From IMG/VR virus record IMGVR_UViG_2529293043_000022: DNA of 5,170 bases, one strand, 5' to 3'. Made by a program: the position numbers and the translations under genes. Position 1 is the first letter of the stretch. Each line of letters opens with the position of its first letter. This document shows, in pieces, positions 1 to 5,170 of the stretch. The stretch comes from a virus (taxonomy: Duplodnaviria > Heunggongvirae > Uroviricota > Caudoviricetes). A model generated the notes under the pieces. The model searched no databases and was not told where the DNA came from. It saw only the letters and a program-made list of their open reading frames with translations.

Positions 1-623
<623 letters not shown>

Positions 624-626
<3 letters not shown>

Positions 627-1868
627 TTCTGCCATTGCGCAAGATGGTTGCGGTTTTTCTTCATCATTTTCTTCTTCTGTTTCCTGCTTAGCAGACAGTT
701 CGCGGTTAACTTCTTCCAGGATATCTTTTTCCGGTGTATGTCGTGCAGCAGTGAGAGTTTCCTTGCTGGGGTTCTCGTGATCAGTCTCCGTTAAGTAGGC
801 GTTGATATACCCCTGAAGGCGTCCCGGGTAGTGATAAAACTCAGGGTGAGCGCTCCGGATAAGTGCAAAAATAGCGGCGCGGGAATAGTCCAGAATACCC
901 GGGGTTGCGCGAAGTGCTGCGGACCATTCTTTGAACGGACTTTCTCTTTTCAGGACGATTTCTTTTGCGCGACGATAAACGCTGCCCGGAATTTCATAAA
1001 TATTAAAATCCATCGGAAGTGTGGCTGCTGCAATCTCCACATCCAGCGTATCGAAGGTGTGTACTAAATTCGGATTGCGATCGGTTTTGTTCCCGCCACC
1101 GGCATTTGCACCGGAAGCCGTACGGGTGATACGCGAAACACGATTTCCTTTCATCCACTCTTTTGTCAGCAGACCCCGATCAGTGTAGTCAGCGTCCAGG
1201 TATGCCTCGAAAAAAGCAGTTATCAGTCCCAGGTCTGAATTACCGGGATTAGGGAAAACTTTGTCAGTGTCGCGTACCAGTTTGTGAAGGTCGCGAATCT
1301 CCAGCGGGTCGAGCAGCTTTGTTTTGTGAGAAATGGCCAAGGCAGTAACAGCCGGCAGTTCTTCCGCCCGTGCTATATGTAATGCCTGAAGTTCTTCCCG
1401 TGCAACGTGCGTTACTGGTTTTTCGCTGCCGTGTTGCGCAAGCCAGCGAATGGGCAGCTCCTGACCAGAAACCGGCAGGAGCATATTCTCCTCAATCTCC
1501 GTCATGTCTTCGCCGTTGACGTTGGTATTGTCAGTACTGGCTGGTTTCTCCTGCACGGAGGGAGAGGGCGCGATAAATACCATTGTAATGCCATCTTCCC
1601 CGCCTTTTTCGTATCGGTTGCAGAATTCGGTATCAAACACGCCTTCAGGTGGAAGGTCATTCACAACGGGTAAATGGACGCGAACGGGTTTTTTAAAGTC
1701 GTCTTCATCATAATCGTTGTCATCCATTGCGGTAATGCAGCGGGAGATGGCAACAGATAATTTTTTTGCTGTAGTCCAGTAAAAACCACCTTTAATTCCC
1801 AGACGTTTTCTGACTTTGTCATTTTTTGCTTCGCAATATAGCGCAAATTCTTCTTTATCAGTGCTCAT
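624..1868 (-). CDS. Hypothetical protein, 414 aa, family not recognised; possibly 3'-truncated by the IS
   Basis: Long uninterrupted ORF with ATG at 1868..1866 preceded by GAGG with a 7-nt spacer (minus-strand sense TAATGAGGTTTATCAATG). Contains a glycine-rich segment SGANAGGGNKTDRN and an acidic C-terminal tail. No Walker A, RT (YxDD), Fic or HTH motif seen by eye. Confidence 0.8.
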
Positions 1869-1960
1869 TGATAAACCTCATTACAGATTTAAGGGTGAAC
1901 AAATCCCTGCCATTGCTGGCATTTTTAATCCGTTGGTATGGTGTTAATATGGCTGGAGGG

Positions 1961-2149
1961 TTATCCAGCCGGTGTTTCGTTATTCAGGTACAGCGATACT
2001 TTTTTTACCGGGAGGCATTCACCAGAAATTTTTTGCTCGTCTCTTGCCTGGAGGCAGGATTCTTTACTGGCATAAATTCCGGTAATCACATTCTGTGATT
2101 CACCCGTTATAAGAAAAACCGTCATCATCAGTGCAAATGCTGAAGTCAT
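1961..2149 (-). CDS. Small hypothetical protein, 62 aa, hydrophobic N-terminus and two Cys
   Basis: ATG at 2149..2147 preceded by GGAG with a 7-nt spacer; its ATG overlaps the stop of the upstream ORF as ATGA, indicating translational coupling. The N-terminus MTSAFALMMTVFLITG is hydrophobic, suggesting a membrane or secreted small protein. Confidence 0.5.
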   Translation of the reverse strand: MTSAFALMMTVFLITGESQNVITGIYASKESCLQARDEQKISGECLPVKKVSLYLNNETPAG

Positions 2150-2334
2150 TGACGTTCTCCGAAAATACCAAGTTCAAGAAGAGCAATTCGGGAAAGTATG
2201 GAATTATCATTGAGCAGATAAGGCTCATATTTCCTCATGTTAATGGCATCTTCAGTAAACTCCCGGTTACTGAGCAGAACACCAATATCAAAACAACCTT
2301 CAGACGTATTAACGTTTGGTAATAACGTTTCCAT
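2146..2334 (-). CDS. Small hypothetical protein, 62 aa (alternative GTG start at 2439 would give 97 aa)
   Basis: ATG at 2334..2332 preceded by GAGG with an 8-nt spacer (minus-strand sense GAGGACGCGATAATG). Its stop TGA at 2148..2146 overlaps the ATG of the next ORF. The GTG at 2439 used by the ORF track has no Shine-Dalgarno sequence. Confidence 0.45.
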   Translation of the reverse strand: METLLPNVNTSEGCFDIGVLLSNREFTEDAINMRKYEPYLLNDNSILSRIALLELGIFGERQ

Positions 2335-2349
2335 TATCGCGTCCTCAAC

Positions 2350-2370
2350 AATGAATTTTGTGATGCAGTG
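2350..2370. repeat. Left copy of a 21-bp imperfect inverted repeat (19/21 match to the reverse complement of 2481..2501)
   Basis: Plus strand aatgaattttgtgatgcagtg; the reverse complement of 2481..2501 is agtgaattttgtgatgcggtg. Lies 4 nt upstream of the Shine-Dalgarno of the 2334 ORF. Confidence 0.7.
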
Positions 2371-2389
2371 CCTGGTGCCTCCAGGTGAC

Positions 2390-2410
2390 GTTAACCAGTT
2401 AACAATTAAC
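2390..2410. repeat. Three tandem (G)TTAAC motifs at 8-bp period; possible protein-binding site
   Basis: GTTAACcaGTTAACaaTTAAC read directly from the sequence; lies inside the segment bounded by the inverted repeat and next to a CCTGG-tgcct-CCAGG hairpin at 2371..2385. Confidence 0.4.
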
Positions 2411-2480
2411 GCCGGATACAGAGAATCCACCCATAACACTGTTTTTGGTTTTAACTGTTCCGCGTGCGCTTAGCCGCATT

Positions 2481-2501
2481 CACCGCATCACAAAATTCAC
2501 T
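2481..2501. repeat. Right copy of the 21-bp inverted repeat
   Basis: Plus strand caccgcatcacaaaattcact. The pair encloses 110 bp (2371..2480). Confidence 0.7.
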
Positions 2502-2838
2502 TTAAAAAGGGCGGCAGAGCAGCCACGGAGTAAAACTGATACCGCCAAACGTCACCAGAAAATTGATAACAGAGGGCGTTGCAGCGGGGTTGTCACTTAA
2601 GCGTATGGTCAACCTGACAACCCGGTGTCCTCAATGGGGAAGGAATAACCCCGCCATACTTACCGCCGCGCCATTTCGCGGAGTGCCACAACCGGAAGCG
2701 CACGTTCGAAGAAATCTAACGACAAGCCTTCTAAGGGAAAGAGCTTCGCCGTACGCTTTCGCGTTATGCACTGACTTTTCAGGGAAATATCCTTTCAGTA
2801 AACTGTCAGTACCGGATTCTTATCCGTGTCCGGCGCAC

Positions 2839-2872
2839 GACCACACGTGACAGCGTGTTGGTCTCCATTTTT
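2839..2872 (+). terminator. Candidate weak intrinsic terminator or attenuator hairpin on the plus strand
   Basis: Stem gaccacacg / cgtgt(t)ggtc (9 bp with one bulge) and loop tgacag, followed by tccaTTTTT. The T-run is offset by 4 nt from the stem, so this is a weak call. Confidence 0.25.
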
Positions 2873-2898
2873 AACCCAGAACCTCAATGGAGGATAAA

Positions 2899-3108
2899 AT
2901 GCCAAACAAAAAAAGAAATCCGCTTATTGAAAAACAGATTGAATGCCTGGTAAATCAACTCAGGCAATCAGGGTTATTAAAAACTCATTCAGAGTTGAGG
3001 CTCACAGAATCAGCATTCGACGATAAATTAAATAATGTCCTTTATAATGGCATTATTGATTTTAATCGTTCTGTTGGTCGCCGCGGCCCTGCTGGTGTTT
3101 CCTTATAA
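2899..3108 (+). CDS. Small hypothetical protein, 69 aa as read; the C-terminal part looks off-frame (see the 3035..3145 feature)
   Basis: Strong RBS: GGAGG at 2889..2893, a 5-nt spacer, ATG at 2899. The ORF-track start at 2887 lacks a Shine-Dalgarno sequence. The last ~20 residues (GIIDFNRSVGRRGPAGVSL) look like a hydrophobic helix read out of frame. Confidence 0.5.
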   Translation: MPNKKRNPLIEKQIECLVNQLRQSGLLKTHSELRLTESAFDDKLNNVLYNGIIDFNRSVGRRGPAGVSL

Positions 3109-3145
3109 TTACCAGTCAATCCAGAGTGGACCGTGTTCAGCGTAA
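3035..3145 (+). CDS. Alternate-frame small hydrophobic ORF, 36 aa (32 aa from ATG 3047): MSFIMALLILIVLLVAAALLVFPYNYQSIQSGPCSA; either an independent membrane peptide or the displaced C-terminus of the 2899 gene
   Basis: In the +1 frame relative to the 2899 ORF the codons spell one clean transmembrane-like helix. No Shine-Dalgarno precedes ATG 3035 or 3047. It overlaps the 3' end of the convergent 216-aa gene by 37 bp. Confidence 0.3.
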   Translation: MSFIMALLILIVLLVAAALLVFPYNYQSIQSGPCSA

Positions 3146-3759
3146 ATATAACTGTACACATCCAGATTATATTTGTGGTCTGTTAAGAACAGGCCGCAAA
3201 TACATGCCGAAGCTTCCAGTGCAGCGGCTCTGTTACTGAATAACCATGTAGCAACATTCCAGCGTTTTTCTGCATCCCAGTCTTTCTCAAGGCCTGATAC
3301 CATGAAGAAACCGTTAGTGTTGCCATCAAATAATTCTGTTTCCAAATTTTTAAGCAATGCCTGATGGACTCTTGCCAGGTATTCCGCCGGAATTTCGCCA
3401 CGAATTCTGATGAGATTGTCATAAACAAACATGTTCCCCGCATATGGCGATTTTTCTTTCTTGTTTTTTAAACCAGCATCATGAGCAAACTGATCAATTT
3501 CTTCTTCCGTTGGTTTCGTATTGATGTTTTGCGCTGTCGTTTCTGCAATTTTATTTGCCACACTCTCTGAGTCGTGTTTATTTATAGACGCACAGAAATA
3601 CAATCCGGTAAACGCATCGCGCACATTACGAGCCATATTATCAGTGTCTTTTTTCGTTACCGATTCCAATTCAAGTTCGTTCAGACGATGACGAAGTGTG
3701 TGTGCTGCAATCTCCTGGATTGAAGGAGGTAAATCTTTAAATTCCATCGTCAACCTCAT
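3109..3759 (-). CDS. Hypothetical protein, 216 aa (212 aa if it starts at ATG 3747), family not recognised
   Basis: ATG at 3759..3757 overlaps the TGA of the upstream small ORF (minus-strand sense TGATG), indicating translational coupling. An alternative ATG at 3747..3745 is preceded by GAGG with a 6-nt spacer. Soluble-looking, with no motif recognised by eye. Confidence 0.75.
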   Translation of the reverse strand: MRLTMEFKDLPPSIQEIAAHTLRHRLNELELESVTKKDTDNMARNVRDAFTGLYFCASINKHDSESVANKIAETTAQNINTKPTEEEIDQFAHDAGLKNKKEKSPYAGNMFVYDNLIRIRGEIPAEYLARVHQALLKNLETELFDGNTNGFFMVSGLEKDWDAEKRWNVATWLFSNRAAALEASACICGLFLTDHKYNLDVYSYIYAEHGPLWIDW

Positions 3760-3992
3760 CAGTCAGTGTTTCTGGCTAACCAGCGACGCGCGCCAGCTTC
3801 AGTTTTAAACGTTTTGCTTTTGGTATACGTCATCGCGGTGAACGTACCGTCCTGGTTGGGGAACACGCCACATACCAGAGATTCGTTGTTGCCAAGATTG
3901 AGCGTATCCATGTTGACCTCATTTCCCCTTAACGCCGGGGTAGCGGAACAAAAACCTGCTGCATAGTTATTAAAGTTGAACCCTGCCGTCAT
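3759..3992 (-). CDS. Small protein, 77 aa from ATG 3992 or more likely 50 aa from ATG 3911; it has the size and position of the small ORFs found next to cI-like repressors in lambdoid prophages
   Basis: The internal ATG at 3911..3909 has the better RBS (minus-strand sense GAGGTCAACATG); ATG 3992 has GAGG with a 9-nt spacer. From memory only, the 50-aa form resembles Rac-prophage-type small proteins (YdaF/YdaG-like); this is unverified. Confidence 0.6.
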   Translation of the reverse strand: MTAGFNFNNYAAGFCSATPALRGNEVNMDTLNLGNNESLVCGVFPNQDGTFTAMTYTKSKTFKTEAGARRWLARNTD

Positions 3993-4090
3993 GTTCTTAC
4001 GCCTCGGGCTGGCTACTTAACCCCTGACCACTGCCTGGTAACTCGAAGTATTGCCCTGCATTCTGTGGGGCGGGGTGAGGGAATGAATGA

Positions 4091-4139
4091 AGTTTAGAAA
4101 AACGAACATTTAAGGTCAATGTTTTTTTATCAAAACATT
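4091..4139 (-). promoter_or_regulatory. Candidate sigma70 promoter for the 50/77-aa plus 216-aa operon, with an operator-like palindrome
   Basis: Minus-strand sense -35 TTGACC (4119..4114), 17-bp spacer, -10 TAAACT (4096..4091). The palindrome AATGTTTT-tttatc-AAAACATT (4118..4139) overlaps the -35 and shares the core GTTTT-N6-AAAAC with the site at 4843..4858 in the cI/cro intergenic region. Confidence 0.4.
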
Positions 4140-4203
4140 TTAAGCAGGCAGCTGTTACGCCATCACTACGATGGCATACAGTTAATCAAATAGATGAGGT
4201 TGG

Positions 4204-4842
4204 TTAAATATCTTGTTGAATTTTAAAGCATACTCCCAATATGCAAGATAGATCATCCAGCATAATTGAAGGGTAGCGAGGATTCGTGGGGACTAAAAGA
4301 ATATCCGGCCCTTCTATCTCCAGTTTGCGAATGACAGGCGTTGTGGTCCCTTTGGGTAAGGCAAGGACAATATTTCCTGGTTGTACGATTCGATCGGGAT
4401 CAACAAAAACTGTTGAACCATTTGGGATGGAAACTCCACCACCAGATGTCGACATACTGTCACTCTCTAGAACAACAGCAAAGGTATTGGCCGGGATTTC
4501 TCCGACAAGCTGCACACAAGAGGTTATTGAGGAATTTTTCATATAATCACTCCAGCTTGCTGCCTGCTGAAGTGATAGTAGCGGAACCGTTTTTATCGGC
4601 GGTAAAGATAGATCAAGCGAATCACCTGTATTTAACTCTCCTCCATTAAGAAGCCAATTTTCGTTTACTTTCAATATCTTTGCCAGTGAACTTATGTAAC
4701 GCGAGGACGGCGCTCCTCCACCGTTCATCCATTGACTTACGGAGCCTTTTGATGCGCCAGTGGCATTGACAAGGTCTTTGCCTTTCAAGTTTAGCGCATG
4801 CATACGTTGGGTTATGCGTTCAGATATTGTTTGCTTGTTCAT
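4204..4842 (-). CDS. cI: Phage CI-like repressor, 212 aa (N-terminal HTH_XRE plus C-terminal S24 LexA-type autopeptidase domain)
   Basis: The HTH region (...LVNATGASKGSVSQWMNGG...) and the S24 Ser/Lys dyad (Ser129 in ESDSM, Lys173 in VIRKL, 44 aa apart) match lambda CI and P22 C2 architecture. It is divergent from a Cro-like gene. No Shine-Dalgarno upstream; a -10-like TAAAAT sits 6 nt upstream of the ATG, so the transcript may be leaderless as with lambda PRM. Confidence 0.9.
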   Translation of the reverse strand: MNKQTISERITQRMHALNLKGKDLVNATGASKGSVSQWMNGGGAPSSRYISSLAKILKVNENWLLNGGELNTGDSLDLSLPPIKTVPLLSLQQAASWSDYMKNSSITSCVQLVGEIPANTFAVVLESDSMSTSGGGVSIPNGSTVFVDPDRIVQPGNIVLALPKGTTTPVIRKLEIEGPDILLVPTNPRYPSIMLDDLSCILGVCFKIQQDI

Positions 4843-4933
4843 GTTTTGATTTTAAAACACAGATGGTTTTGTTTCTTGACTTTCTTTGGTTTTGATTATT
4901 AAACTTTTGGCGTTCAGTTTTATGGAGCGACTC
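4843..4933. promoter_or_regulatory. Immunity-switch intergenic region: divergent promoters (PRM-like and pR-like) with two to three operator-like repeats
   Basis: Operator-like sites GTTTTGATTTTAAAAC (4843..4858) and GTTTTGATTATTAAAC (4889..4904), with a weaker GTTTTGTTTCTTGAC (4866..4880), at about 22-23 bp spacing. Plus strand: -35 TTGACT (4876..4881) with a poor -10 (TATTAA/ATTAAA, 4897..4903) and GGAG (4924..4927) before ATG 4934. Minus strand: -10 TAAAAT (reverse complement of 4849..4854) with a poor -35. Confidence 0.6.
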
Positions 4934-5170
4934 ATGAAAAAATCAGAAGTATTAGGCTATTTTGGCGGAGTTGTTAAAACAGCCGCCGCTCTAGGAACGT
5001 CAAAAACCACAGTCAGCATGTGGGGGGAAGACGTTCCGTGGAAATGGGCGTTGCTAATTCAGGCAGTCACTGCCGGGGCGCTCAAATATGAGTTACACAT
5101 ACCGACGGTTGTCATTCCCGATTCTGATCATAATCCGCCTTCTAACCAAGGGGGGATTCATGAAAAATCA
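4934..5170 (+). CDS. cro: Cro-like small regulator (P22 Cro family), 3'-partial or unusually long; runs to the window edge without a stop
   Basis: GGAG with a 6-nt spacer before ATG 4934. The N-terminal ~53 aa (MKKSEVLGYFGG...SMWGEDVP...AVTAGALKYE) resemble P22 Cro from memory (...IVTAGALKYQ...). At least 79 codons are open. A possible overlapping start for the next gene is GGGGGG-N4-ATG at 5160. Confidence 0.8.
   Translation, partial: MKKSEVLGYFGGVVKTAAALGTSKTTVSMWGEDVPWKWALLIQAVTAGALKYELHIPTVVIPDSDHNPPSNQGGIHEKS

Follow-up and report, generated by a model that had tools for sequence, protein, structure and literature searches.

The 5,170-nucleotide (nt) window analyzed here, which is the whole of the stretch taken from IMG/VR virus record IMGVR_UViG_2529293043_000022 (Caudoviricetes), carries two tightly packed minus-strand genes downstream of a CI-type repressor: ydfA and an orphan gene for a protein of 212 amino acids (aa). 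We consider it quite probable that these are the first genes of a repressor-controlled early operon of the dicBF type in an Escherichia coli O157-type prophage, a degree of confidence that applies to the operon together with its regulation. The layout of such operons is already known, and the new part is an accessory cassette within one of them. A further finding, which rests on sequence comparison, is that the C-terminal domain (C-domain) of the 212-aa protein is nearly always accompanied by a 69-aa gene in convergent orientation, p69, and that this orphan pair would lie inside the DicF precursor transcript. The original prediction had read ydfA and its neighbor as an unrecognized two-gene operon in the position of lambda rexAB, and as a candidate exclusion or defense module. 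The first of the two genes proves to encode YdfA (DUF1391), and the same strand runs on to DicF, DicB, DUF1482/YdfD, and RecE (Table 1).

The order repressor, promoter, leader, ydfA, variable slot, dicF, dicB, DUF1482, recE is common to the window, to the Qin prophage of K-12, and to other E. coli loci, which keep it with different repressors. Phages Tritos and vB_EcoS-640R1 carry cI, small genes, dicF, dicB, ydfD, and exonuclease VIII, followed by xis and int. Among IMG/VR loci, ydfA lies upstream of the 212-aa gene on the same strand in 75 of 79, usually 11 nt away and beside several unrelated repressor types; dicB and ydfD lie downstream in most, and a DicF-like sequence occurs on the same strand in 51. 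Three features by which a dicBF-type operon can be recognized are found in the window: a repressor-adjacent promoter with a predicted operator for that repressor, a promoter-proximal DUF1391 gene (YdfA/YdaF), and DicF followed by dicB and ydfD downstream on the same strand. A consensus scan of the minus strand revealed no terminator-like site between the promoter and DicF, and the only one up to dicB is DicF's own. In Qin, for which the dicBF gene order has been described (PMC5069750), the dicBp transcript starts upstream of ydfA, continues polycistronically through dicF, dicB, and ydfD, and is 22-fold more abundant without DicA (PMC10448788). From synteny, we infer that the same polycistronic, repressed transcript is made in the present prophage, with CI replacing DicA.

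Comparison with Qin also delimits the cassette. The Qin genes dicA, dicBp, ydfA, ydfB, ydfC, dicF, dicB, and ydfD have the same order and strand as those of the window, and the region upstream of dicF is ~92% identical to K-12. The window differs in its repressor, a CI-type protein with a helix-turn-helix (HTH) and an S24 domain and with its own predicted operator in place of DicA, and in the replacement of ydfB/ydfC by a 919-bp cassette (2840-3758) that holds the 212-aa gene and p69. The cassette has a G+C content of 37-41%, compared with 50-51% in its flanks, and neither YdfB nor YdfC of K-12 resembles the 212-aa protein.

The regulatory side of this assignment is carried by the operator. 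The sequence TGTTTT-N6-AAAACA occurs in two exact copies in the window, one on either side of cI (4120-4137 and, where cI begins in the interval between cI and cro, 4842-4859), whereas none was found in 200 shuffled sequences. The operator-like palindrome pointed out earlier is thereby confirmed as an exact 18-bp element at 4120-4137, far above chance. Of 80 related IMG/VR loci, the 12 with the present CI type (a repressor at least 98% identical) all contain the exact palindrome and the 68 with other repressors all lack it; because it accompanies this CI type only, we take it to be the predicted CI operator. The proposed promoter, TTGACC-17-TAAACT, is found at 4119..4091 on the minus strand, but the match by itself is not above chance (4 promoter-like sites with 9/12 matches, compared with 5.1 ± 2.2 in shuffled sequences). 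The credibility of this promoter rests on its context rather than on the consensus match. It mirrors pR, which reads TTGACT-18-TAAACT, and a weaker left site (4091-4108), which we read as a putative operator, overlaps its -10 element TAAACT in parallel with the OR1-like site on the right, a 3-mismatch operator copy (4888-4905) that overlaps the -10 of pR. Moreover, the 5′ leader and ydfA are conserved across loci with unrelated repressors, the leader being 93-94% identical in phages Tritos and vB_EcoS-689R5, whereas the promoter/operator stretch varies with the repressor. The promoter would therefore be part of the immunity module and drive the leftward genes, as the predicted equivalent of pL and dicBp. 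Operator and promoter (4091-4137) sit between cI and both genes, which places the genes in the position of lambda N and not of rexAB; the fallback offered in the original prediction, an early-left, pL-type function, is borne out by this location. The 5′ leader showed no unusual RNA folding (z = +1.16), and the idea that it contains a structured RNA or a put/nut-like element was discarded.

Conserved start codons refine the two genes. The minus-strand open reading frames (ORFs) as first described, 3992..3759 (77 aa) and 3759..3109 (216 aa), are present directly downstream of the same-strand repressor ORF (4842..4204), with a gap of 211 nt on the minus strand between the cI stop and the small-ORF region. 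For the small gene, conservation places the start at ATG 3911 (50 aa), with GAGG 6 nt upstream. The GAGG-N6-ATG arrangement is invariant, the 27-codon extension to 3992 is no ORF in K-12 or L004, Pfam DUF1391 covers only residues 29-75 of the 77-aa ORF, and the 88% identity to K-12 YdfA (51 aa) begins at Met 3911. The ratio of nonsynonymous to synonymous substitution rates (dN/dS) of ydfA is 0.12 relative to K-12. The conserved start of the large gene is ATG 3747 (212 aa, MEFKDLP...), also with GAGG 6 nt upstream and located 12 nt after ATG 3759; MEFKDLP is common to all 19 aligned homologs, 18 of which start there, the other (P0106) bearing an MRLT extension. The 50-aa and 212-aa forms are also those called by the Prokaryotic Genome Annotation Pipeline (PGAP). 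As for the translational coupling suggested earlier, the TGATG sequence does occur at 3759, but the conserved starts put 11 nt between the genes, which remain tightly packed and do not overlap.

The 212-aa protein is an orphan, as its first description had it: it has no match in Pfam, NCBIfam, or PADLOC, and its PHROG family, phrog_2151, has no assigned function. Profile searches of the Protein Data Bank (PDB) yielded nothing usable for the full-length protein (best match Noc, E = 0.05) and a best E of 0.08 for its N-terminal domain. A profile search of 1.84 billion representatives returned just fragments, relatives of the N-terminal module, and two Salmonella-type relatives of the C-domain, and a scan of GTDB representative genomes returned no relatives. 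The relatives are confined to Escherichia and Salmonella prophages, where they are named only "hypothetical" or "Ybl81," and we found no literature that treats Ybl81, DUF1391, or phrog_2151 functionally. The deposited-phage collection holds no complete copy of the gene. It is present at full length in 597 of 5426 complete E. coli genomes (~11%), with mostly Shiga toxin (Stx)-producing lineages as carriers among the matches listed; the identical protein occurs on ~1000 contigs, and truncated or frameshifted copies of the gene exist.

The protein consists of an N-terminal helical module (approximately residues 1-90) and a C-terminal alpha/beta domain (approximately residues 95-212), for which the AlphaFold2 (AF2) model gives the topology beta-beta-alpha-beta-beta-alpha-beta. 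With a dN/dS of 0.17-0.20, the C-domain is under purifying selection, whereas the N-module (0.40-0.66) evolves faster; the gene is a functional one. Invariant residues of the C-domain are mostly hydrophobic or structural, and the scarcity of polar ones suggests a binding domain rather than an enzyme. The first ~55 residues of the N-module (MEFKDLPxxIQxIAA...VRxAFxxLY; window 3478-3747, minus strand) also stand atop dozens of short early-left ORFs (P0124-P0173), those of Stx2a phages included, with unrelated and often very short C-termini behind them; the recurrence may reflect either a protein module or a recombination junction. In one branch of the C-domain family, represented by P0141 (L012-L014, 5001-5861), an XRE-type HTH is inserted between the N- and C-terminal domains, which hints that some family members may bind DNA.

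Convergent to the 212-aa gene lies p69, which we regard as a real gene because its coding frame has a dN/dS of 0.23 and stops interrupt all the others. It matches no family in Pfam (even at E ≤ 10) or PADLOC, a PDB profile search was empty, and only phrog_4274 was recovered. In 73 of 77 IMG/VR loci it faces the 212-aa gene convergently, and the two almost always adjoin without a gap. The same partnership extends to diverged Salmonella and enteric loci (L007, L010-L014, L094), in which the C-domain, joined there to another N-terminal domain, retains only 33-39% identity, and the p69 homolog (46-54% identical) is convergent and overlaps the 3′ end of the C-domain gene. In these loci the early operon has the C-domain gene in second place, immediately behind cox and beside an int-repressor/cox switch of P2 type. 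One copy with a truncated N-terminus and an intact C-domain likewise retains p69. Since p69 is kept with the diverged C-domain, the conserved unit is the C-domain gene with p69, rather than ydfA with the 212-aa gene.

Several further features of the opposite strand deserve mention. The region upstream of p69 (window 2840-2904, plus strand, with a GGAGG ribosome-binding site) is common to L006 (3187-3381) and L004 (3367-3455); behind it, L006 has a different 64-aa plus-strand ORF and L004 has no ORF. Cargo thus seems to be exchanged in the opposite-strand slot, with a shared 5′ region ahead of it. In L012, a 10-bp G+C-rich hairpin with a T-run (5776-5801, minus strand) comes after the p69 homolog, within the 3′-terminal part of the C-domain gene convergent to it, suggesting that the homolog may be a transcription unit of its own; no equivalent terminator-like site was found in the window. 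A very hydrophobic 36-aa ORF at 3035-3145 on the plus strand (MSFIMALLILIVLLVAAALLVF...), which overlaps p69 and the 3′ end of the 212-aa gene, resembles a type I toxin but was discarded as a candidate, its frame being without selection and interrupted in L005.

Together, these features suggest how the locus may work. In the lysogen, the promoter at 4119..4091 would be kept off by CI, which would occupy the palindrome 4120-4137 and probably also the weaker site over the -10 element. Once repression is lifted, a single leftward transcript would give rise to YdfA (50 aa) and the 212-aa protein, pass antisense through p69, release DicF by processing, and continue to dicB, ydfD, and recE. The 212-aa protein would thus be an early lytic-phase accessory protein, and not an exclusion protein expressed in the lysogen. 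The p69 product could be made from the opposite strand in the lysogen and the C-domain protein only after derepression, with the two products acting on each other; this interaction, taken by itself, is a tentative proposal. More speculatively still, following the SieB/Esc logic with two unrelated orphan proteins, p69, which occupies the sieB slot, and the C-domain might form a new exclusion and self-immunity pair divided between two programs, in which p69 blocks superinfection in the lysogen, the CI-controlled C-domain protein neutralizes p69 for the prophage's own lytic growth, and the N-module is an exchangeable adaptor.

A number of observations weigh against this interpretation. The perfect palindrome is centered near -44.5, upstream of the -35 element, where a repressor could in principle activate, and the site over the -10 element has mismatches at 4 of 12 half-site positions. 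The Ser and Lys motifs of the S24 domain (SDSM and IRK) are kept in CI; its sequence lacks any Ala-Gly or Cys-Gly bond, and RecA-mediated self-cleavage at the canonical site is therefore not to be assumed. A consensus scan found no promoter for p69, the only match (2871-2900) overlapping the start codon. Pairing with p69 is not obligatory, since 4 of the 77 loci (L004, L077, L087, and L091) keep a 208-211-aa gene without it. The AF2 models of the 212-aa protein are of moderate confidence (mean predicted local distance difference test score of 62 and 59 in two runs, with ~70-84 for the C-domain in the second), and fold-library searches with them gave generic matches only.

Other readings of the locus differ in how they treat the two programs. 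That ydfA and the 216-aa gene form a self-contained exclusion or abortive-infection module expressed in the lysogen like rexAB, perhaps a toxin with a small neutralizer, is very unlikely in our estimation, despite the well-known clustering of exclusion genes in immunity regions (lambda rexAB and sieB, Rac sieB), the protection of K-12 from some phages by expressed DicB from the same operon type (bioRxiv 10.1101/708461; PMC6832061), and the low G+C content of the cassette relative to its flanks, which counts in favor of this view. Neither gene sits in the interval from cI to its operator; both follow the CI operator and promoter, and in other loci the true cI-to-promoter interval carries RelBE. 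The neighborhood census likewise turned out otherwise than a dedicated module would require: ydfA is the constant first gene also in prophages without the 212-aa gene, beside several unrelated repressors, and there is therefore no dedicated pair of ydfA and the 212-aa gene. PADLOC has no match for the 212-aa protein or YdfA, no Pfam or NCBIfam match points to an exclusion module, and the strand continues to DicF and DicB with no terminator-like site ahead of DicF. A prophage-expressed defense role for this pair, as first envisaged, is unlikely. We give even less credence to the view that both genes no longer serve any function and are simply decaying in a defective prophage. The prophage is indeed defective, with a truncated recE beside a transposase fragment and an integrase pseudogene in the identical record, and truncated or frameshifted copies of the 212-aa gene would fit decay; however, ydfA (0.12), the C-domain (0.17-0.20), and p69 (0.23) are all under purifying selection, and the distribution of the gene, identical on ~1000 contigs and full length in 597 of 5426 genomes, is not that of a remnant.

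A possibility to be taken more seriously, although we doubt it, is that the 212-aa protein acts alone as an early host-takeover or counter-defense factor, following the logic of lambda ral, gam, and kil, and that p69 is a merely linked, unrelated lysogenic-conversion gene like sieB. The gene occupies a variable promoter-proximal early slot, and a constant N-module with many alternative C-termini, in Stx and other phages, is the pattern expected under diversifying pressure; the N-domain evolves faster than the C-domain, and some loci keep the gene without p69. Bare linkage, however, explains poorly why p69 remains convergent and abutting at 33-39% (C-domain) and 46-54% (p69) identity, next to a different N-domain and a different type of switch, and the 212-aa protein has no similarity to known anti-defense proteins. 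It is also conceivable, though improbable, that the arrangement is a safety device akin to toxin-antitoxin systems, in which a harmful 212-aa protein that is expressed by leakage is neutralized by constitutive p69 from the opposite strand, along with antisense transcription, until induction. Convergent geometry, abutting stops, and co-inheritance fit such a device, the operon is known for toxic products under layered control (PMC5069750; PMC10448788), and the terminator-like hairpin after the p69 homolog in L012 suggests an independent transcription unit. Yet the four loci that have an intact 208-211-aa gene and no p69 are unexpected if p69 is an essential antidote; neither protein resembles a known toxin or antitoxin, and the invariant residues of the C-domain are mostly hydrophobic or structural.

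The stretch 1900-5170 aligns full length to O157:H7, O121, and other complete E. coli chromosomes, where it is annotated as part of a prophage, and from the TR01 record it differs solely by a single base in an A-run (5167). In that record, the PGAP annotation of CI is confined to its C-terminal 112 aa, named a "LexA family protein." Only about the first 400 of ~880 residues of RecE are retained, the C-terminal part being absent, and with the transposase fragment next to this remnant the early-left operon of the present prophage copy is broken distally; the recE remnant of the TR01 strain is bounded differently. A sub-threshold Rfam match to STnc100 at 2302-2511 on the minus strand (34.7 bits compared with a gathering score of 47; E = 6e-5) spans the DicF-dicB spacer and the start of dicB.

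Table 1. Annotated features of the 5,170-nt window. OL, left operator; sRNA, small RNA.
Feature	Coordinates	Strand	Evidence or remark
CI-type immunity repressor, 212 aa (N-terminal HTH, C-terminal Peptidase_S24)	4204..4842	-	Pfam Peptidase_S24 8e-13, HTH_3 2e-4; phrog_4 (transcriptional repressor) 5e-40; NCBIfam DicA N-terminal 1e-10
Predicted left (OL-type) CI operator, exact 18-bp palindrome TGTTTT-N6-AAAACA, TGTTTTTTTATCAAAACA	4120..4137	.	Adjoins the -35 hexamer
Candidate promoter, pL/dicBp equivalent, TTGACC-17-TAAACT	4091..4119	-	Promoter scan
Weaker operator-like site, inverted repeat, TGTTCGTTTTTCTAAACT on the minus strand	4091-4108		Covers the -10 and spacer of the leftward promoter
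5′ leader of the early-left transcript	3912..4084	-	Alignment of window, L004, and L006
ydfA ortholog (DUF1391), 50 aa, first gene of the operon	3759..3911	-	Pfam DUF1391 1.2e-29; 88% identity to K-12 YdfA
Orphan two-domain early gene, 212 aa ("Ybl81" type)	3109..3747	-	phrog_2151 1.9e-147
p69, convergent 69-aa gene	2899..3108	+	phrog_4274 1.4e-51; stop codon abuts the stop of the 212-aa gene
DicF sRNA and terminator hairpin	2509..2560	-	Rfam RF00039, 75 bits (gathering score 48), E = 8e-16; terminator-like site 2526..2511
dicB, cell-division inhibitor	2146..2334	-	Pfam DicB 2.7e-36; PGAP annotation in identical record
ydfD-like DUF1482 gene	1961..2149	-	Pfam DUF1482 2.9e-15; also PGAP
RecE/exonuclease VIII, N-terminal part only	624..1868	-	Pfam Exonuc_VIII 1.6e-34; phrog_607, residues 1-399 against positions 1-402 of an 883-position profile
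rve-domain (DDE) transposase fragment beside the recE remnant	3-584	+	
cI/cro switch region	4842..4933	.	Exact operator copy 4842-4859; weaker copy 4888-4905; pR 4876-4905 (+)
pR, TTGACT-18-TAAACT	4876-4905	+	Ahead of cro
cro	from 4934	+	Pfam P22_Cro 1e-15

What looked like a plausible defense module next to cI is thus the start of a well-studied dicBF early operon, and screens for cI-adjacent defense cargo in prophages should locate the operators first. If the cassette affects processing or readthrough of the transcript, the output of DicF and DicB could change. DicF and DicB output is linked to the physiology of enterohemorrhagic E. coli. If p69 and its partner were an exclusion and antidote pair, they would constitute a new family at a classic phage locus.

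Comparison with lambda makes the position of the genes clear. The lambda order is cI, rexA, rexB, OL3-OL1/pL, nutL, and N, beyond which sieB is encoded on the other strand, and the rexAB slot is the interval from cI to OL. A rexAB-type module lies between cI and OL/pL and is co-transcribed with cI; in the window this interval (4138-4203) is 66 nt long and empty, and the searches of Pfam, NCBIfam, and PADLOC gave no similarity to RexA or RexB, with DUF1391 in the small protein as the sole match. The true equivalent of the rexAB slot is occupied in relatives with other immunities, ~11 IMG/VR loci (e.g., L022-L024, L043, L045, L047, L069, and L090) and L004 (4564-5034) carrying relB/relE between the repressor and the early-left promoter. 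Lambda and the window nevertheless share operators, predicted ones in the window, on either side of cI and a first pL gene that meets a convergent gene stop to stop, N (35037-35438) and sieB (34482-35036) in the one and positions 3109 and 3108 in the other. The early genes themselves differ, being ydfA and the orphan 212-aa gene in the window and N in lambda, and Pfam and Rfam searches detected no homolog of N or nutL in the window.

A type II toxin-antitoxin system would consist of two adjacent co-directional genes in an autoregulated operon, at least one of them with a recognizable toxin or antitoxin fold, whereas the C-domain gene and p69 are convergent and match no toxin or antitoxin family. 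PADLOC-DB v2 likewise has no match for the 212-aa protein, YdfA, p69, or Salmonella P0153; the inserted HTH of P0141 alone was matched, by generic HTH-containing models. Closer in arrangement is the Rac prophage of K-12, with racR, ydaG, ydaF (DUF1391), an opposite-strand sieB that overlaps the end of ydaF, kilS, kilR, and recE. Rac and the window have in common a repressor, small early genes that include DUF1391, an opposite-strand gene that meets them at its 3′ end, an sRNA, a division inhibitor, and recE. The opposite-strand gene of Rac is SieB (Pfam PF14163, 162 aa, 1.5e-31), whereas that of the window, p69, meets the early-left gene at its 3′ end just as sieB does but has only 69 aa and no match to PF14163. 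SieB is an exclusion protein that the prophage expresses; in P22, Esc, with antisense control, counteracts what SieB does to the development of the phage itself (PMC12197685), so that the antidote comes from the early program of the phage. The p69 pair shares only logic and map position with sieB/esc/sas, in that a gene of the lysogen side and an early-lytic product would share one spot with antisense overlap, and it has no sequence relationship to it; whereas the P22 antidote is an internal product of sieB, that of the window would be a separate convergent gene.

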